Assembly (NCBI GenBank): GCA_028693285.1
Contig: JAQUVQ010000006.1
Coordinates: 8,039 to 72,038, forward strand
DNA from: Smithellaceae bacterium
GTDB lineage: Bacteria > Desulfobacterota > Syntrophia > Syntrophales > Smithellaceae
Reading direction: 5' to 3'
Length of the DNA: 64,000 nucleotides
Positions 43,022 to 64,000 of this stretch are shown here, in pieces (positions within the stretch are counted from its first letter, which is position 1; each line of letters begins with the position of its first letter). The notes beneath the pieces are model-generated. The model ran no database searches, had not been told where the DNA came from, and worked only from the letters and a program-made list of their open reading frames with translations. A program made the translations under genes and the position numbers.

Positions 43022-43804
43022 ATGCTCTTCGACATTCCCCGCGCTTCTCAAAGCCGGTTGAAAAGTTGGGCGAAGCTTTCCGATGCGAAGTTTCGCCGCG
43101 CGGAAGGCCTGTTTCTGGCCGAAGGGGTGAAAGTTGTTGAAGAACTGCTGAAAAGCGGCCTTGAAGCGGAAGCCCTGCTCGTCCTGCCGGAAAAAATTTC
43201 CGTCTGGGAAAAAATCCTTCGTGAGGCGAAGAGCAGCGTTCCCGTATATCAATTGACGCGCCCGGAGTGGAAAAAACTGAGTCAGGACAGGGAGCCTGAA
43301 GGAGTGATAGCCGTTGTCCGCATCCCCCGGGAGCCTTCCTTTTTGTCTTTTCTCCAATCGTCCGGCGGCCATATTCTGATCCTTCATGAAATCAACAATC
43401 CCGGCAACCTGGGCGCGCTGATCCGCAGCGCCTGCTGGTTCGGCTTTTCCGGCGTTCTGCTGAGCTCCAACTCGGTGGACTGGACCAATCCCAAGGTTGT
43501 TCGCTCCTCGATGGGAGGTGTCTTTGCGCTGACGATTTTGTCCAATATCGACATCCCGGCTCTTTTGCCGGAAATCCGGCAGGAGTACATTCTTGTCGGC
43601 AGCGACCCGCACCGGGGCGTCGCGCCGCGAATACTAAAGAGAAAAGCGGCGCTTCTTCTGGGCAGCGAGAGCCACGGCCTGCCGGATTGCCTGCTGGGCG
43701 AGGTCGCTGAGCGCTGGCGGATTCCCGGCGGTGAAGGAGCCGAATCGCTCAGCCTTCCGCAGGCGGGGGCGATTATGATGTATAAAATAGTGGATAGTGG
43801 ATAG
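43022..43804 (+). CDS. TrmH/SpoU-family RNA 2'-O-methyltransferase
   Basis: N-terminal substrate-binding domain plus SPOUT motifs (NPGNLGALIRSA, LLLGSESHGL, IPGGEGAESLSLPQAGAIMMY). Confidence 0.85.
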   Translation: MLFDIPRASQSRLKSWAKLSDAKFRRAEGLFLAEGVKVVEELLKSGLEAEALLVLPEKISVWEKILREAKSSVPVYQLTRPEWKKLSQDREPEGVIAVVRIPREPSFLSFLQSSGGHILILHEINNPGNLGALIRSACWFGFSGVLLSSNSVDWTNPKVVRSSMGGVFALTILSNIDIPALLPEIRQEYILVGSDPHRGVAPRILKRKAALLLGSESHGLPDCLLGEVAERWRIPGGEGAESLSLPQAGAIMMYKIVDSG

Positions 43805-43991
43805 TGAATGGTGGATGGTAAAAAGACAGGCGAGTGGCGATGGGAAAAAGAAGTGCAGGGAACGGTCGCGACCGTTCCCTACGGGTCATGGGTTATAGGT
43901 CATGGGCGATAGGGAAAAGCTCATGGCTCGTAGTAAAAAGCGACGAGCGACGAGTGACTAGGAAATCGTAGGGCGGATCTTTAGACCTGCC
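43790..43991 (+). repeat. Modular heptad-periodic intergenic repeat, copy A: GTGGATR tract + 24-bp palindrome + heptamer words + GTAGGGCGG hairpin
   Basis: GTGGATA GTGGATA GTGAATG GTGGATG at 43790-43817. Perfect palindrome AGGGAACGGTCGCGACCGTTCCCT at 43857-43880. ATGGGTT ATAGGTC ATGGGCG ATAGGGA ... CGAGCGA CGAGTGA. GTAGGGCGGATCTTTAGACCTGCC at 43968-43991. Confidence 0.75.
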
Positions 43992-51761: not shown

Positions 51762-51850
51762 GTGAATAGTGGATGGTGGATAGCGGATGGTGAAGAAAGG
51801 CGAGAGGCAATGGGCTATAGGCGATAGGAAAAAAGCTCATTGCTCATTGC
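51762..51850 (+). repeat. Modular heptad-periodic intergenic repeat, copy B (short variant without palindromes)
   Basis: GTGAATA GTGGATG GTGGATA GCGGATG GTGAAGA, then AAGGCGA GAGGCAA TGGGCTA TAGGCGA TAGGAAA AAAGCTC ATTGCTC ATTGC. Lies between convergent genes. Confidence 0.6.
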
Positions 51851-51854
51851 TTAT

Positions 51855-53021
51855 TTACTTCTTTTTCTTCATCAAATCTCCCAGCGTCCCCATGGTTTTG
51901 GGCGACTTGGGCAGGTAGCTCTTGTAATCGTCTCCCGATTCTTCCCGTGGGCCGCCGTTTTCCGCGCCGCCGGAAGCCAGATCAAGCGCGATTTTTTTGT
52001 GCTCGCGGTCAATCTTTTCAATCTTCACGTCGATGTCGCGGTCCTTGGCCAGCACGTCCTGGGCGTGCTTGATCTTTTTGCCCCGGCCCAGTTTGGAGAT
52101 GTGCAAAAGCCCGTCCACGCCGGCTTCCAGCGTGACAAACGCGCCGAAATCCGTCAGCCGCGAAACCCGGCCCCTGTGGATGCTTCCTTCGACATAATTG
52201 CGGACAACGTCGTCCCACGGATCCGGGAGCGTATCCTTGAAAGACAGTGTGACGCGGTCGTTTTCCCAGTCAAGGTTGATGACGACCGCCTCAATCTTGT
52301 CGCCCGGCTTGTACAGGGATTTTGCGTCCTCCACTCTTCCCCAGGTCATTTCCGAAACCGGCAGAAGCGCCTGGACGCCGCCGATGTCCACAAACGCGCC
52401 GAAGTCGCGCACCGAAGTGACCACCCCCTGCACGGTCATGCCTTTTGTCAGGGATTCCTTCAGCGCGGATTTCTTTTCCTGCTCGATTTTTTCCAGGAGA
52501 GGGCGGCGCGACAGGATGATGTTGCGGCCGTTTTCGCCGTATTCGATCACGAGAAAGTCGAATTTTTTGCCGATGTAATCGGCGGCGCTCTCGATTCTTC
52601 GAAGCTCCATCTGCGAAAAGGGGCAGAAACCGCTCGCGCTGGCGCTGATTTTTACCGAAAATCCCCCCTTGACCTCCTTTTCAACGGCGGCTTCCAGCGG
52701 AATCCGGTGGGCGTAGGCGTTGGCCAGAAAATCATCCACGCTCTTGCGGGAAAGCAGTTTGGTCGTAAACAGCCTTTCGCTGTGGCGCGAGGAAAGGAAA
52801 TAAGCGGTCACGCTGTCGCCTTCCCGGGCGGTCAGATTGCCCTCCTCGTCGAGAAATTCTTTTTTATCGATATAGCCTTCGCTCTTGGCGCCCAGATCGA
52901 TGAAGACCCATTCCGGGGAAATCTTGACGATGGTCGCCTCCGCTTTCTCGCCCACGGCGAAGCGTTTGGGGGCGGCGTAGGACTCCTCGAGCATTTCAGC
53001 AAATGTTTTTGTATCTTCCAT
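51855..53021 (-). CDS. S1 RNA-binding-domain protein (four S1 repeats, Lys-rich tail)
   Basis: Repeats such as GEKAEATIVKISPEWVFIDLG, GMTVQGVVTSVRDFGAFVDIGG, GSIHRGRVSRLTDFGAFVTLEAGVDGLLHIS. ATG 53021 (MEDTKTF) is preferred over 53030 because the GAAGGA spacing is better. Confidence 0.8.
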   Translation of the reverse strand: MEDTKTFAEMLEESYAAPKRFAVGEKAEATIVKISPEWVFIDLGAKSEGYIDKKEFLDEEGNLTAREGDSVTAYFLSSRHSERLFTTKLLSRKSVDDFLANAYAHRIPLEAAVEKEVKGGFSVKISASASGFCPFSQMELRRIESAADYIGKKFDFLVIEYGENGRNIILSRRPLLEKIEQEKKSALKESLTKGMTVQGVVTSVRDFGAFVDIGGVQALLPVSEMTWGRVEDAKSLYKPGDKIEAVVINLDWENDRVTLSFKDTLPDPWDDVVRNYVEGSIHRGRVSRLTDFGAFVTLEAGVDGLLHISKLGRGKKIKHAQDVLAKDRDIDVKIEKIDREHKKIALDLASGGAENGGPREESGDDYKSYLPKSPKTMGTLGDLMKKKK

Positions 53022-53197: not shown

Positions 53198-54499
53198 ATG
53201 CGTTTTGAAATTTCCCGCGGCGGCAGCGGCCTCACCTACGAAATCCGCAATATCGTGATGATCGCGAAAAAGATGCAGGAATACGGGCTGAAAATCATCT
53301 GGGAAAACATCGGCGACCCGGTCCAGAAGGGGGAAAACATCCCCGACTGGATGAAGGAAGTCCTCATCGACATCCTCAGGGAGGACATGTCCTACGCCTA
53401 TTCGCCGACGAAAGGCGTGGACGCCACGCGCGCTTTTCTGGCGGAGCGCACCAACGCGCGGGGAAAGATTCAAATCACGCCGGACGACATCATTTTTTTC
53501 AACGGCCTGGGCGACGCGATCGCCCGCGCCTACAGCTCCATTCAGGTGGACGCCCGCATGATCATGCCGGAGCCGACCTACTCCACGCACCTGATGGCGG
53601 AAGTGCTGCACGCGTCGTTTCCGCCCAACACATACCGGATGAATCCCTACAACAACTGGGCGCCGGATTTGCGCGAACTGGAGCACAAGGTGAAGAGCCA
53701 CCGGGCGATCGTCGGTATCCTGATCATCAATCCCGACAACCCGACCGGCTTCGTGTATCCCGTCGAGGCGTTGGAAAACGTCGTCCGGATCGCCCGCGAA
53801 AACGATCTGTTCGTCATTGCCGACGAGACCTACATCAACATCGTTTACAACGGCAAAAAGACCGTGCCGATCGGCGACGTGATCGGCGACGTGCCGGGCA
53901 TCGCCATGAAGGGCATTTCCAAGGAGGTCCCCTGGCCGGGCGCGCGCTGCGGCTGGATGGAGGTGTACAACGCGGAACGAGACCCGATCTTTGCCCGCTT
54001 CATCAACACGATTCTGCACCAGAAGATGTCGGAAGTCTGCTCGACGACGCTGCCGCAGATGGCGATTCCCCGCATCATGACGCATCCGGAATACAAAAAT
54101 TATCTGCGCCGGCGGACCCAGCACTATGAAAAACTCTCCGCCATCGCCTATGGCGTGCTCAAGGACGTCCCGTTTGTCATTGCCAACAAAAGCAACGGCG
54201 CCTTTTATATGACGATTCTTTTCAACGAGTCCGTGCTCAATGAACGCCAGCGCCTTTCCGTCGCCCCCCCGGAGCTCCAGAGCTATATCGAGAAACTGAC
54301 GAAGGGCGTCGAATACGACAAGCAGTTTGTGTACTATCTGCTCGCGGCCACCGGCATCTGCGTGGTTCCGCTGACGTCATTCTTCACGCCGCTGCTCGGA
54401 TTCCGCATGACGCTTCTGGACAAGGATGTGGACGAGTTCGAGTTCGTCGTCAAGACGCTGGCGGAAAAAATCACCGAGTATATTCAATCGAGCAAGTAG
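53198..54499 (+). CDS. Class I/II pyridoxal-phosphate aminotransferase (alanine/aspartate aminotransferase-like)
   Basis: AAGGAG 9 nt upstream of ATG 53198. NIGDP, INPDNPTG, and the PLP-Lys region GISKEVPWPGARCGW. Confidence 0.88.
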   Translation: MRFEISRGGSGLTYEIRNIVMIAKKMQEYGLKIIWENIGDPVQKGENIPDWMKEVLIDILREDMSYAYSPTKGVDATRAFLAERTNARGKIQITPDDIIFFNGLGDAIARAYSSIQVDARMIMPEPTYSTHLMAEVLHASFPPNTYRMNPYNNWAPDLRELEHKVKSHRAIVGILIINPDNPTGFVYPVEALENVVRIARENDLFVIADETYINIVYNGKKTVPIGDVIGDVPGIAMKGISKEVPWPGARCGWMEVYNAERDPIFARFINTILHQKMSEVCSTTLPQMAIPRIMTHPEYKNYLRRRTQHYEKLSAIAYGVLKDVPFVIANKSNGAFYMTILFNESVLNERQRLSVAPPELQSYIEKLTKGVEYDKQFVYYLLAATGICVVPLTSFFTPLLGFRMTLLDKDVDEFEFVVKTLAEKITEYIQSSK

Positions 54500-54662
54500 T
54501 GGATGGTGGATGGTGGATAGTGGATGGCAGGGAACGGTCGCGGCCGTTCCCTGCGGGCAACGAACGACAAGTGAAAAGTGACGAGTGTCATGGTGAGCTA
54601 GTCGAACCATGGCGAGAGAGTGACAAGTGATGATCAATGTAGGGCGGGTCTTCAGATTCGCC
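54499..54662 (+). repeat. Modular heptad-periodic intergenic repeat, copy C
   Basis: GTGGATG GTGGATG GTGGATA GTGGATG at 54499-54526. Palindrome GCAGGGAACGGTCGCGGCCGTTCCCTGC at 54527-54554. AAGTGAA AAGTGAC GAGTGTC ... GAGTGAC AAGTGAT. GTAGGGCGGGTCTTCAGATTCGCC at 54639-54662. The tract starts inside the aminotransferase stop codon. Confidence 0.75.
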
Positions 54663-54683
54663 TTGGTGTATGGTGGTTGGTAA

Positions 54684-54725
54684 CAAAAAAAGAGCAGAAG
54701 GTCTTTCACCTTCTGCTCTTTTTGT
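54684..54725. terminator. Bidirectional intrinsic terminator (aminotransferase on +, RRM gene on -)
   Basis: A-run, 12-bp perfect stem AGAGCAGAAGGT-ctttc-ACCTTCTGCTCT (54691-54719), then T-run. Confidence 0.8.
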
Positions 54726-54733
54726 TGGTGTTG

Positions 54734-55075
54734 CTAGTAACGGCCGCCCCGGTTTCCGCCCCCGCCCCGGTTTCCGCCGCCACGGTATCCGCCTCCGCCG
54801 CCGCCCCGGTTCCCTGAGCCGAATTCCTTCTTTGGCCTGGCTTCGTTGACGGTGATGGCCTTGCCGTCCAGTGTGCCGCCGTTGAATTTCTGAATCGCCG
54901 CCGTCGCGCCTTCTTCCGTTTTCATTTCGACAAAGCCGAACCCCTTGGACTGGCCTGTAAACCTGTCCTTGATCACGGATGCGGAAACGACTTCGCCCGC
55001 TTCCGAGAAGTTGACCTTGAGGTCCTCATCCGTTACCTTGAAAGACAGATTGCCGACGTATAGATTTTTGTTCAT
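54734..55075 (-). CDS. RRM (RNP-1/RNP-2) RNA-binding protein with Gly/Arg-rich (RGG) tail
   Basis: Start MNKNLYVGNLSF (RNP-2), KGFGFVEM (RNP-1), C-terminal GNRGGGGGGYRGGGNRGGGGNRGGRY. The track ORF's 13-aa extension was rejected. Confidence 0.9.
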   Translation of the reverse strand: MNKNLYVGNLSFKVTDEDLKVNFSEAGEVVSASVIKDRFTGQSKGFGFVEMKTEEGATAAIQKFNGGTLDGKAITVNEARPKKEFGSGNRGGGGGGYRGGGNRGGGGNRGGRY

Positions 55076-62109: not shown

Positions 62110-62154
62110 CAAACAGGCTATAGGCAAAAGGCTATAGGCTATAGGTAACATTTG

Positions 62155-62196
62155 AAGCCCCTTGTCCGATTTGGACAAGGGGCTTTTTTATTTTTT
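62155..62196 (+). terminator. Intrinsic terminator of the acs-etfBA-FeS oxidoreductase unit
   Basis: 13-bp perfect stem AAGCCCCTTGTCC-gattt-GGACAAGGGGCTT followed by TTTTTATTTTTT. Confidence 0.85.
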
Positions 62197-62216
62197 CAGG
62201 CGACGGGTAAAGAATG

Positions 62217-62358
62217 GTGAATGGTGGATGGTAGGGAACGGTCGCGATCGTTCCCTACGGGTCATGGGCAATAGGTGATGGGTGGCAGGAAAACAACTGG
62301 TGGGCAATGAGTGACGGGCAGACGCTAGAGCTGGAATGCAGGGCGGGTCTTTACTGCC
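62217..62358 (+). repeat. Modular heptad-periodic intergenic repeat, copy D
   Basis: GTGAATG GTGGATG. 28-bp palindrome GTAGGGAACGGTCGCGATCGTTCCCTAC at 62231-62258. GGGTCAT GGGCAAT AGGTGAT GGGTGGC. GCAGGGCGGGTCTTTACTGCC at 62338-62358. A related GGCTATA heptamer run lies at 62115-62146, upstream of the terminator. Confidence 0.7.
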
Positions 62359-62560
62359 TGTTGCCCAAATACCCTTTTCGCTTGCCCGAGGGCGTTTTGT
62401 ATAAATCTAAGGCTCGCTTCAGGCAATGACAAAACTCGCCTTCGGCTCAAACAGTTGTCATTGCTGATCTTACGCTTCGCTAAGATTTATATAACAAAAC
62501 GCTCTCAATGGCCGCTCAAAGGGATATCGTTTGGGCAACAGCCTTTCTTCAGACCCGCTG
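62338..62560. repeat. Long imperfect palindrome (REPIN/MITE-like hairpin, arms about 100 bp)
   Basis: Matching inverted blocks: CTGTTGCCCAAA 62358-62369 / TTTGGGCAACAG 62530-62541 (12/12). GAGGGCGTTTTGT 62388-62400 / ACAAAACGCTCTC 62494-62506 (12/13). ATAAATCT 62401-62408 / AGATTTAT 62483-62490. CAATGACAA 62424-62432 / TTGTCATTG 62455-62463. Outer GCAGGGCGGGTCT / AGACCCGCTG. Confidence 0.65.
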
Positions 62561-62573
62561 TGGTGGATGGAAG

Positions 62574-62602
62574 AAACAGCCGGGCGTGGTGCCCGGCTGT
62601 TT
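62574..62602 (-). terminator. Hairpin immediately after the acyl-CoA ligase stop (probable terminator)
   Basis: AAACAGCCGGGC-gtggt-GCCCGGCTGTTT, a 12-bp perfect stem 4 nt beyond the TAA (62607-62609, minus strand). U-rich flanks on both strands. Confidence 0.5.
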
Positions 62603-62606
62603 GGTT

Positions 62607-64000
62607 TTATTCGCCAATCGACGGGATGAATTCCACTTCCCGGGGGACTTTGTAGGGAGAGAGATACACCTTGCAGTGGCGGATGATGTCTTTTTCGTCC
62701 GGATGAAATCCCTCGCGCAGGACAACCTGCGCCTTGACCAGCTCGCCGCGCATCAGGTCCTGCTTGCCCACGACGCGGCATTCCTTCACCGCCGGATGCA
62801 TCTCCAGAATCGTTTCCACTTCCCGAGGATAGACATTGAAACCGCTGGTGATGATCATCCGCTTCTTGATGCCAGTCAGGAAAATGTAGCCTTCCTCGTC
62901 CATTCGGCCCAGGTCCCCGGTGTAAAGCCAGCCGTCCTTCAGAACGGCCGCGGTGGCCGCTTTGTCTTTATAGTAGCCTTTCATGACGTTGCCGCCCCGG
63001 ACAATCAGTTCGCCGATCGTATCGCGCGGCAGCTCCCGTCCGTCCTCGTCAACAATTTTGATGTCGATGCCTTCCAGGGCGGTTCCGATGGAACCGGGTT
63101 TTGCCACGGTTTCCATTCTGTTGAAGGAACAGGCTGGCGCCGCTTCCGTCAGACCATAGCCTTCCAGAATGCGGACGCCGAATTTCTGTTCAAAAACAGG
63201 GATGAAATCGGGCGGCATGGCCGAGCCGCCGGTGACGCATAACTTCAGCGAGCTGAGATCATATTTGGCAGCTTTTTCGTAAAAGACCATGCCCATGTAG
63301 AGGCGGGGGACGGCGACGATATACGATATTTTTTCTCTTTCGAGCGTGGAAAAAAGACTATCCATCGTCAACCGGTCCATCATCACCGTGGAGCAGCCGG
63401 CCTGAATGACGTTGAGCATGTTCACCGTGACGCCGAAGGAATGGAAAAGGGGAATCAGGCAGAGGCCCACATCGTCGGGTGTTCTTCGAAAAGTGGCATG
63501 GACCACATCGAGCTCCGAGCAGAGATTGGCGTGGGTCAGCACCGCGCCCAGCGGTTTGCCGGTCAGACCGGCGGTGTAAATCATGACGGCCGGATCCTCG
63601 GGGTCAATGGGCACGGAAGGAAGCTCCGGGGCTCCGGATTCGTTTTCCGAAAGGAAAGCGTTTTTCGCCGGATCGACCGTCAGAATGTTGCGGCAGGTGG
63701 TCAGTTGATCCTTGATTTCCTGATAGCGCTTTTCACCCGCCGAGTGCGTGATGAGAATTTTGGCGTCGCTGTTGTTGAGCAGATAGTTCATTTCATAGGG
63801 CGTGGATCCCGTGTTGAGCAGCACGGCCACGGCGCCGGATTGAAAAACGGCGAAGCAGCTGTAAACAAACTCGGGGATATTGGGCAGCATGATGGCCACC
63901 TTGTCTCCCTTTTCCAGCTCCATGTTTTTCAAAGACCTCGCGACGGCCGAAACGGCCGACTGCAGCTGCCGGTAGGTAATTCGCTGGTTGTCCGCAATCA
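62607..64000 (-). CDS. AMP-dependent acyl-CoA synthetase/ligase (long-/medium-chain fatty-acid--CoA ligase-like), N-terminus outside window
   Basis: The frame remains open upstream of the first Met (63932) to the window edge (...ITYRQLQSAVSAVARSLKNMELEKGDKVAIMLPN). AMP-binding motif YTAGLTGKPLGAVLTHANL, TGDLGRMDEEGYIFLTGIKKRMI, and C-terminal YKVPREVEFI. Confidence 0.88.
   Translation of the reverse strand, partial: IADNQRITYRQLQSAVSAVARSLKNMELEKGDKVAIMLPNIPEFVYSCFAVFQSGAVAVLLNTGSTPYEMNYLLNNSDAKILITHSAGEKRYQEIKDQLTTCRNILTVDPAKNAFLSENESGAPELPSVPIDPEDPAVMIYTAGLTGKPLGAVLTHANLCSELDVVHATFRRTPDDVGLCLIPLFHSFGVTVNMLNVIQAGCSTVMMDRLTMDSLFSTLEREKISYIVAVPRLYMGMVFYEKAAKYDLSSLKLCVTGGSAMPPDFIPVFEQKFGVRILEGYGLTEAAPACSFNRMETVAKPGSIGTALEGIDIKIVDEDGRELPRDTIGELIVRGGNVMKGYYKDKAATAAVLKDGWLYTGDLGRMDEEGYIFLTGIKKRMIITSGFNVYPREVETILEMHPAVKECRVVGKQDLMRGELVKAQVVLREGFHPDEKDIIRHCKVYLSPYKVPREVEFIPSIGE

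Follow-up and report, generated by a model that had tools for sequence, protein, structure and literature searches.

Four intergenic segments in a 64,000-nt stretch of a Smithellaceae bacterium genome (contig JAQUVQ010000006.1, positions 8,039 to 72,038; hereafter the window) share a common modular word set. We interpret these segments, copies A, B, C and D (the last in two parts, D1 and D2), as mosaic non-coding elements in which slippage-type heptad arrays are combined with double-foot repetitive extragenic palindromes (REPs) mobilised by a transposase, a reading to which we assign a probability of roughly 0.6. Three kinds of module occur in them: degenerate heptad arrays, a 28-nt double-foot REP palindrome GTAGGGAACGGTCGCGACCGTTCCCTAC and a second, GTAGGG-headed hairpin. 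In the mechanism that we propose, arrays of the consensus RGKNNAT, of the kind known as short tandemly repeated repetitive (STRR) sequences or long simple-sequence repeats (LSSRs), would arise and be homogenised by replication slippage in gene-end spacers and would then decay through point mutation. The GTAG-footed hairpins GTAGGGAACGGTCGCGACCGTTCCCTAC and GTAGGGCGGGTCTTYAGACCCGCC would be single-strand DNA elements unable to move by themselves and mobilised in trans by a Y1 (HUH) transposase of the RAYT/TnpAREP-like type, from a subclass with the same hairpin in-frame in its own gene; these REPs would have landed in or beside heptad arrays, and composite pieces of some 60-90 nt would then have been copied to other spacers. 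Two parts of this mechanism are inferred: that the heptads originated by slippage, and that the mobilising RAYT is encoded at another place in the host genome. On this reading most copies would be transcribed in 3' untranslated regions (3' UTRs). REPs of E. coli are transcribed hairpins that protect mRNA 3' ends; by analogy, the copies that are transcribed (A, C, D1 and probably B) may form stable 3'-UTR hairpins that slow 3'-to-5' mRNA decay, at most incidentally. The elements are known kinds combined anew, and not a new class of regulatory RNA.

An original prediction, made from the sequence alone, had located the segments at 43790-43991, 51762-51850, 54499-54662 and 62115-62146 plus 62217-62358, and all four were found there. 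Lag-7 autocorrelation, evaluated for each segment against 500 dinucleotide-preserving shuffles, revealed the excess of period 7 for which the prediction had proposed such a control: it was strong in A (z = 6.4), B (7.7), C (3.6) and D1 (5.0), with echoes at lags 14 and 21, and weak in D2 (z = 0.5 at lag 7 and 3.2 at lag 14). Tandem Repeats Finder (TRF) reported period-7 arrays in A (43787-43816 and 43939-43958), B (51769-51792, 51798-51828 and 51835-51855), C (54499-54527 and 54566-54587) and D (62115-62145 and 62212-62232). By both measures (TRF, lag-7 z of 3.6-7.7) head-to-tail 7-nt units occur above chance, as in STRR and LSSR arrays. A sliding lag-7 scan of all 64 kb flagged the four loci together with two marginal coding matches, and no further comparable heptad-periodic element was found in the window. 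The GTGGATR doublet GTGGATRGTGGATR, allowing up to two mismatches, has 11 matches in the window, all on the plus strand, vs. 0.8 expected; the palindrome has three sites (0 expected), and so does the tail motif (0.25 expected). Related copies in loci L036, L055, L175, L010, L144 and L223 show that the family is not confined to the window.

These results bear out the description of a non-coding, modular, heptad-periodic intergenic family, as well as the exclusion of a CRISPR, since each element has one palindrome, the elements are 8-10 kb apart and there are no regularly spaced identical repeats. The further claim that the four copies carry the same words in the same order does not hold for copy B, which has neither palindrome nor tail hairpin. 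The heptad phase, said to be kept across the 28-bp palindrome, is not: in A, C and D2 the G-by-phase profiles left and right of the palindrome show no correlation at shift 0, and on the RGKNNAT consensus the register is offset by 1 nt in C and D2 and by 3 nt in A. The apparent preservation of phase is mere arithmetic, 28 being 4 x 7.

The palindrome of A, C and D2, which the prediction had not recognised as a REP with GTAG feet that belongs with a family of tyrosine transposases, consists of G(T/C)AG, GGAACGGTCGCGNNCGTTCC and CT(A/G)C over 28 nt and lies at 43855-43882 in A (GCAGGGAACGGTCGCGACCGTTCCCTAC), 54527-54554 in C (GCAGGGAACGGTCGCGGCCGTTCCCTGC) and 62231-62258 in D2 (GTAGGGAACGGTCGCGATCGTTCCCTAC). 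All three sites have the size of REPs (20-40 bp, stem-loop capable), and we count them as double-foot (5' GT[AG]G, 3' C[TC]AC), with GTAG...CTAC in D2, GCAG...CTAC in A and, both feet being altered compensatorily, GCAG...CTGC in C; the predicted stem of C and D is 12 bp long. Scanning one genome per species, we found the palindrome core in at least 118 stretches from about 17 phylum-level lineages, including Planctomycetes, Smithellaceae, Omnitrophota, Elusimicrobia, Bacteroidales, Ignavibacteria, Aminicenantes, FCPU426, Patescibacteria, Anaerolineales, Leptospirales, Orenia and others. These 118 loci contain about 111 sites at which the whole 28-mer GTAGGGAACGGTCGCGACCGTTCCCTAC is unchanged, between unrelated flanks. 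Across 112 sites the feet are GTA/TAC in 77 and the compensatory GCA/TGC in nine; stem variants retain pairing (GTAGGGAATGGTCGCGACCATTCCCTAC; GGGAACGCTCGCGAGCGTTCC in L175), and the arm triplets covary (AAC/GTT, ACA/TGT, GGC/GCC, GAC/GTC) around an invariant centre, GGTCGCGACC. Several copies per metagenome-assembled genome (MAG) also occur elsewhere, with at least seven loci each in Smithellaceae C21 and FCPU426; the 64-kb window has three.

Six of the 118 loci have a gene for a RAYT/TnpAREP-like Y1 (IS200-like) transposase that contains or abuts the palindrome, with profile scores of 20-29 bits for PF01797 (Y1_Tnp) and of 55-64 bits, below the 80-bit cut-off, for NCBIfam REP_Tyr_transpos. 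The loop that follows the HUH motif was compared in 120 homologues and reads VGNGRDRSL (45 proteins), VGTGRDLSL, VGGGRDRPL or VGAGRDLPL; these peptides are translated palindromes with both arms changed together, as confirmed at the DNA level by GTAGGGACAGGTCGCGACCTGTCCCTAC in L254 and GTAGGGGGCGGTCGCGACCGCCCCCTAC in L255. The transposases are 40-55% identical to one another, vs. 100% for the 28-mer, and from the invariance of the hairpin while the proteins diverged we conclude that the hairpin itself is under selection. A hairpin in-frame inside its own transposase gene has already been described for TnpAY1 subclass 2.4 (Quentin et al. 2018, PMC6006769), so a REP in this position is not new; a literature search found no paper containing the 28-mer.

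Other features of these genes and hairpins were seen alongside. The post-HUH loop of RAYT-like proteins (P0230, P0189, P0229, P0217; L049 2628-3194) often has tandemly duplicated half-palindromes, among them DRSPHPT five times (21-nt unit), VGTGRDAAS three times and VGNGHGGAVGNGCGGVVGNGRDRSL; tandem duplications in frame thus seem to arise preferentially at the embedded REP. One RAYT-like gene (L255 160-281 and 282-821) has two distinct REP variants within it, one giving VGGGRDRPL and the other VGTGRDLSL, with a third variant, GTAGAGGACGGTCGCGACCGTCCTCTAC, just upstream; all three have the centre GGTCGCGACC. Another (L231 108-1075) is split into an N-terminal part on the minus strand (320-108) and a C-terminal part on the plus strand (879-1034), with GTGAATG heptads directly after, and looks as if it had been inverted at its internal palindrome. 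A REP copy at L248 8524-8570 has about 22 nt inserted in its loop, GTAGGGAACGGTcgcgtaaccttcaggttatttaACCGTTCCCTAC, which suggests a nested insertion into the hairpin. Planctomycetales MAGs carry a different GTAG-footed REP, GTAGGGGCGTATTGCAATACGCCCCTAC, beside the 28-mer (L001 about 1450-1520; L112 6790-7050), and several REP families therefore coexist in these genomes.

The history of the elements was read from relatives of the host, a species common in anaerobic digesters; aminotransferase homologues at 95-96% identity are annotated Smithellaceae. Two syntenic relatives, L252 and L253, have an aminotransferase 88% identical to that upstream of C, and its stop codon is followed directly by the terminator, element C being absent. 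Locus B of both is an 80-nt spacer without element B, and at locus D, again a short and unrelated spacer, the element is likewise absent, with only a short, different heptad-like stretch (as in L252) before the homologous terminator. A more distant relative, L144, shares 71-76% nucleotide identity over 6.7 kb; between trmH and cutA it has nothing but about nine GTGRATR units, vs. four clean units at locus A in the window, and its methylase open reading frame (ORF) also ends in GGATAG. Since heptads stand at locus A in both, the array is older than the split of the two species, and since the L144 array has no palindrome, other heptad types or tail, these modules were added later. The mosaics were accordingly assembled stepwise by insertion. 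Module order varies among A, L036, L055 and L175, and C and D2 share both junctions of the palindrome and so look like copies of one composite.

Heptad arrays themselves form a wider class. Heptamer arrays have been reported in Cyanobacteria, Beggiatoaceae (TAACTGA, PMC4679880) and Bacteroidetes, and Geobacter metallireducens has GGACCGG and paired MTYCTGA arrays (PMC2700814). Heptanucleotides are the commonest class of LSSRs in bacteria and have been ascribed to polymerase slippage (Mrazek 2007, as related in PMC4679880); the analogy with STRR sequences drawn in the original prediction is accordingly sound, bacterial heptamer arrays being an established class (PMC4679880, PMC2700814). A metagenome scan for three GTGRATR units returned at least 120 stretches from soils, sediments, sea water and guts, mostly GTGAATR, many of them paired with an inverted array and able to form heptad hairpins, and often adjoined by other heptads (CAACTGA, GGTCTTT, TGACCAT). 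The palindrome-retrieved loci hold 83 period-7 arrays of 60 canonical unit types. Inverted pairs are frequent there too: in Smithellaceae, Omnitrophota, Elusimicrobia and Patescibacteria MAGs an array is often followed by its reverse complement (e.g. GACCACA four times ... TGGTCTA five times), as at L002 2500-2632 and 3081-3213, L034 4782-4928, L106 5755-5887, L077 3956-4088, L075 1240-1379, L051 3249-3395 and L009 5902-6076. Such pairs would fold as long hairpins with heptad arms, and the paired MTYCTGA arrays of Geobacter may, by analogy, be the same phenomenon.

Several observations weigh against slippage-born arrays invaded by mobile REPs. Element A is unchanged but for one or two single-nucleotide polymorphisms in eight assemblies of the species, with no change in heptad copy number among them; nothing in it, therefore, points to slippage or transposition that is still active. 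Two species with coding DNA only about 72% identical have both kept the heptad array of locus A, a persistence that could also mean selection. No RAYT-like gene was found in the window or in the approximately 25 Smithellaceae loci sampled, and mobilisation in the host genome is therefore something we can only infer. The GTGAATR unit recurs in many unrelated metagenomes, of which slippage alone is no explanation. Finally, all four window copies are co-oriented with their upstream gene, with the G-rich strand on the strand of positive GC skew; the same orientation, the G skew and the roughly 2:1 bias seen elsewhere (see below) are not predicted by pure neutrality.

A second explanation, which we consider possible but unlikely, is that the elements are functional RNA modules of 3' UTRs, in which the G-rich heptads would be a multivalent site for CsrA or a cold-shock, S1-domain or RRM protein, the hairpins would set 3' ends, and stability or translation of the upstream gene would be tuned. 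The genomic setting speaks partly for it. All four copies lie in spacers, A overlapping its upstream gene by the last five codons only, and the upstream genes are those that the original prediction had guessed: a SpoU/TrmH-type methylase (A), an ADP-forming acyl-CoA synthetase (B), an aminotransferase (C) and a Nitrate_red_gam/CCG iron-sulfur (FeS) oxidoreductase (D). A and C begin at or inside the stop codon of the upstream gene, the heptads of A encoding the last five codons and stop of the methylase ORF (ATA GTG GAT AGT GGA TAG), and B begins about 30 nt past the upstream stop. Downstream are genes for CutA (plus strand) after A and, on the minus strand, for an S1-domain protein after B, an RRM protein after C and an AMP-binding enzyme after D. 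The last gene, being on the minus strand, makes the D spacer convergent like those of B and C, and A alone lies between co-directional genes. C sits between a stop codon and a bidirectional terminator (54687-54723), and D1 between the FeS oxidoreductase stop codon and a strong intrinsic terminator (62154-62196). This terminator splits D1 from D2, which it flanks together with the terminator of the AMP-binding gene. Placement in a 3' UTR is thus only partly borne out: it fits C and D1 (stop to terminator) and A (co-directional genes) but not D2, between two terminators, and A, C and D1 are positioned for transcription with the upstream gene.

Also in favour of an RNA role are the co-orientation of all four copies with the upstream gene, the retention of the locus A array in L144, and the proposal of heptamer repeats as sites for post-transcriptional regulators in Beggiatoaceae and Nostoc. 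A small hairpin, ATGGGC-N11-GCTCAT, retains a G.U pair on the plus strand while its outer pairs vary between copies (C-G in A, GCA-TGC in B, GCT-AGC in L036); with four copies only, this covariation is a hint, not a test. Against such a role, GGA does not exceed its compositional frequency (observed/expected from shuffles: A 8/7.7, B 4/3.8, C 5/5.8, D1 0/1.0, D2 4/5.1) and the related arrays are mostly GTGAATR, which has no GGA, so that the basis for a CsrA sponge, as put forward in the original prediction, is removed. The heptad units are also highly diverse (60 among the 83 arrays), relatives manage without the elements at loci B, C and D, and outside the window co-orientation with the 5' gene is only 45:24. 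The whole window gave three tRNAs and no other match in a gathering-threshold scan of Rfam, and an E-value scan of copy A gave only noise. A tblastn search found no csrA in the window or the fetched loci, an uninformative result from a small genome sample. In the predicted RNA folds (z = -4.9 for C, -4.5 for D) the dominant structures are three hairpins, formed by the palindrome, the tail and the intrinsic terminators nearby; palindrome and tail hairpin fold separately in C and D, with no long-range pairing of the kind seen in inverted REP doublets (REPINs).

A gene for a small RNA of the CsrB/RsmZ type was rejected because A and C start at or inside a stop codon, no promoter-like site lies next to A, B or C, which thus have no promoter of their own, and there is no Rfam match. 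A three-frame stop-codon trap for read-through ribosomes was rejected too, as stops are not enriched over composition and some frames are open for more than 100 nt. G-quadruplexes were set aside because the G-runs are GG doublets only and the GTGAATR arrays are unable to fold into such structures.

We give still less credence to a replication-linked DNA role or bias, in which the G-rich strand would come to lie on the leading strand through strand-specific transposition or slippage, or in which the repeats would be oriented Chi-like GNTGGTGG signals. The GC skew of the window is positive throughout (+0.037) and the G-rich strand of every copy is on that strand; among 67 metagenome loci the GTGRATR strand is that of positive flanking GC skew in 46 vs. 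21 (p = 0.003). The Chi-like motif of Haemophilus is GNTGGTGG, which is fitted by GATGGTGG within GGATGGTGG. Y1 transposases of the IS200/IS605 type moreover act on the lagging-strand template (background in PMC6006769). GC skew is, however, confounded with gene orientation, many arrays are inverted pairs with no net orientation, most are GTGAATR and have no TGGTGG, and the Chi of Haemophilus may not be that of Syntrophales; Chi-like GNTGGTGG and Shine-Dalgarno mimicry (GGTGA) were both set aside as not common to the wider family. The uniform orientation described in the original prediction holds for all four copies in the window but weakens outside it, where direct-only GTGRATR arrays in metagenomes are co-oriented with the 5' gene in 45 cases vs. 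24 (crude ORF calls), a bias of only about 2:1. The orientation bias is real but moderate, and it does not separate transcription from replication as its cause.

Improbable, in our judgement, is a single system of heptads and REPs, in which GT[AG]G-initiated heptads (GTGGATR, GTGAATR) would be arrays of the transposase foot motif, serving as landing pads for a TnpAREP-like enzyme or arising through its repeated cleavage and ligation: although heptads begin with GTGG, GTGA or GTAG, the tetranucleotide class of the REP foot, all three window REPs sit in heptad arrays, in C, D2 and L036 the foot stands where the next heptad would be (...GTGGATG followed by GTAGGGA...), a different hairpin follows GTGAATA in L210 (GTAGAGACGCG...) and the RAYT-like gene of L231 is followed by GTGAATG heptads, most heptad units have no GT[AG]G, and the junctions of C and D2, both shared, probably reflect one composite that was copied and not independent insertions. 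A general coupling of GTGRATR arrays with hairpins was rejected because a perfect hairpin of at least 8 bp lies within 56 nt on the 3' side of only six of 118 arrays, vs. three on the 5' side, and a general coupling of REPs with heptads because only a handful of the approximately 111 REP sites have heptads nearby. Period-7 arrays are 2.6-fold denser near the REP in a comparison of intergenic DNA with the whole locus. Coupling would seem to hold only locally. To our knowledge, bacterial heptanucleotide arrays of the STRR type have gone unexplained since about 1990; were the two coupled, this would be the first mechanistic origin for them and would account for the spread of one REP-RAYT pair over about 17 phylum-level lineages.

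Within the preferred reading of mosaic elements, the anatomy of the copies can be given module by module, all on the plus strand apart from the palindromes, which are listed without a strand. The consensus RGKNNAT is loose, covering GGTGGAT, GGTGAAT, GGGTCAT, GGGTTAT, AGGCTAT and AGGCGAT as well as GTGGATR units, and drifts to AAAGCTC/ATGGCTC and CGAGTGA units. An alignment of B, A minus its palindrome and copies from other contigs yields the scaffold consensus ATAGTGGATnGTGAATnGnGGATGGTGA...AGGCGATAGGCAATGGGCGATAGG..AAAAGCTCATGGCTCAT. The tail hairpin that ends A, C and D2 is GTAGGG-headed, GTAGGGCGGGTCTTYAGA(C/T)(C/T)CGCC. All copies have a strong skew of G over C on the plus strand (+0.37 to +0.53), and no terminal inverted repeats bound the elements as they would a miniature inverted-repeat transposable element (MITE).

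Copy A opens with left heptads at 43787-43854 (GTGGATA GTGGATA GTGAATG GTGGATG, then degenerate GTAAAAA GACAGGC GAGTGGC GATGGGA) and continues past the palindrome with right heptads at 43883-43967 (GGGTCAT GGGTTAT AGGTCAT GGGCGAT AGGGAAA AGCTCAT, then CGACGAG repeats), within which lies the small hairpin CATGGGC-N11-GCTCATG with one G.U pair. Its tail hairpin GTAGGGCGGATCTTTAGACCTGCC (43968-43991) is a degenerate form of the GTAGGG-headed REP-like palindrome GTAGGGCGGGTCTTYAGACCCGCC, better preserved (GTAGGGCGGGTCTTYAGACCCGC..) in L055, L109 and L175 and complete only in L109. Copy B, at 51762-51855, is a bare heptad scaffold of GTGAATA GTGGATG GTGGATA GCGGATG GTGAAGA AAGGCGA GAGGCAA TGGGCTA TAGGCGA TAGGAAA AAAGCTC ATTGCTC ATTGCTT, with a hairpin GCAATGGGCT...AGCTCATTGC inside it. 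Copy C has GTGGATR heptads (54497-54526) that start at the aminotransferase TAG stop codon, then, past the palindrome, degenerate heptads (54555-54638; AAGTGAA AAGTGAC GAGTGTC ... GAGTGAC AAGTGAT) flanking a small hairpin CATGGTgagctagtcgaACCATG, and lastly the tail hairpin GTAGGGCGGGTCTTCAGATTCGCCTT and residual heptads GGTGTATGGTGGTTGGTAAC (54639-54683), which end just 5' of the bidirectional terminator. D1 consists of AGGCTAT-type heptads at 62110-62146 (AGGCTAT AGGCAAA AGGCTAT AGGCTAT AGGTAAC). D2, 3' of the intrinsic terminator, has short heptads at 62198-62230 (AGGCGAC GGGTAAA GAATGGTGAATGGTGGATG), the palindrome and a right part at 62259-62360, made up of heptads (GGGTCAT GGGCAAT AGGTGAT GGGTGGC), degenerate sequence and, at 62338-62360, the tail hairpin GCAGGGCGGGTCTTTACTGCCTG; the right part is 87% identical to the corresponding part of A over 61 nt.

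The surroundings hold some features of their own. On the minus strand, 43855-43892 of the window reads as the REP of A followed by ACTTCTTTTT, with a T-run, and scores as an intrinsic terminator; in this orientation the REP could stop antisense transcription from cutA. The plus-strand ORF 62508-63242 is spurious, being an antisense frame of the AMP-binding gene on the minus strand (62607-63932), which has its own terminator at 62574-62602, and synteny is broken after D, where relatives carry an enoyl-CoA hydratase. Between D2 and that terminator lies a separate element of about 120 nt (62388-62506) with inverted terminal arms of about 27 nt, GAGGGCGTTTTGTATAAATCTAAG ... CTAAGATTTATATAACAAAACGCTCTC, which looks MITE-like or like a long operator palindrome. 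The minus-strand gene for the RRM protein has, in its 3' part, tandem repeats of 15-18 nt (CCGCCCCGGTTTCCGCC; 54743-54793), which look ordinary and probably specify a tail rich in Gly and Arg.

Among known systems, the closest match for the palindrome is with GTAG-tagged double-foot REPs of TnpAREP/RAYT subclass 2.4 (Di Nocera et al. 2013, PMC3733652; PMC6006769), with which it shares the length of 28 nt, the GT[AG]G and C[TC]AC feet, three G-C pairs at the base of the stem, compensatory changes that keep the stem and, probably, dispersed, mostly extragenic copies, mainly downstream of genes. Unlike these, the palindrome is embedded in heptad arrays and its cognate transposase gene was not found in the available sequence of the host genome; and whereas the usual view has REPs confined to a species or genus, the identical 28-mer occurs in MAGs of about 17 phylum-level lineages. 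The elements resemble the bacterial interspersed mosaic elements (BIMEs) of enterobacteria as intergenic mosaics of REP hairpins and short motifs that follow genes, are often transcribed and have variable modules, but BIMEs have REPs of alternating orientation and defined linkers, whereas here symmetric hairpins of two types stand 80-100 nt apart with degenerate heptad linkers. With cyanobacterial STRR and other heptanucleotide arrays they share tandem intergenic 7-nt units, several types side by side, a sporadic distribution across phyla, a frequent position near the start or end of genes and slippage as the proposed origin. The STRR consensus units of heterocystous cyanobacteria are CCCCAGT, TTGGTCA and CAACAGT; here, by contrast, the host is a syntrophic deltaproteobacterium, the units are GTGGATR, AGGCTAT, GGGTCAT and CGAGTGA, and the arrays are short, degenerate, interleaved with REPs and free of copy-number variation in eight assemblies. 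RNAs of the CsrB/RsmZ type likewise have repeated GGAUG-like words in a non-coding stretch, but in the present elements GGA is at compositional frequency, the motifs lie outside hairpin loops, A, B and C each lack a promoter and Rfam gives no match.

The elements account for spurious ORFs, for peptide motifs such as VGNGRDRSL and for the altered C-terminus of the SpoU methylase, which matters for annotation, and they are a likely cause of contig breaks in MAG assemblies. Cumulatively, our findings extend REP/RAYT biology to the syntrophic Smithellaceae of anaerobic digesters, and the points of most interest are the stepwise history across relatives and the identity of one REP across phyla. The former offers a concrete, datable case of the build-up of an intergenic mosaic, with an array shared at one locus, REPs and further modules in one lineage and empty sites in its sisters. 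The latter, one exact 28-nt REP across many phyla vs. transposases about 50% identical, is awkward for the view of REP-RAYT systems as vertical and lineage-specific.

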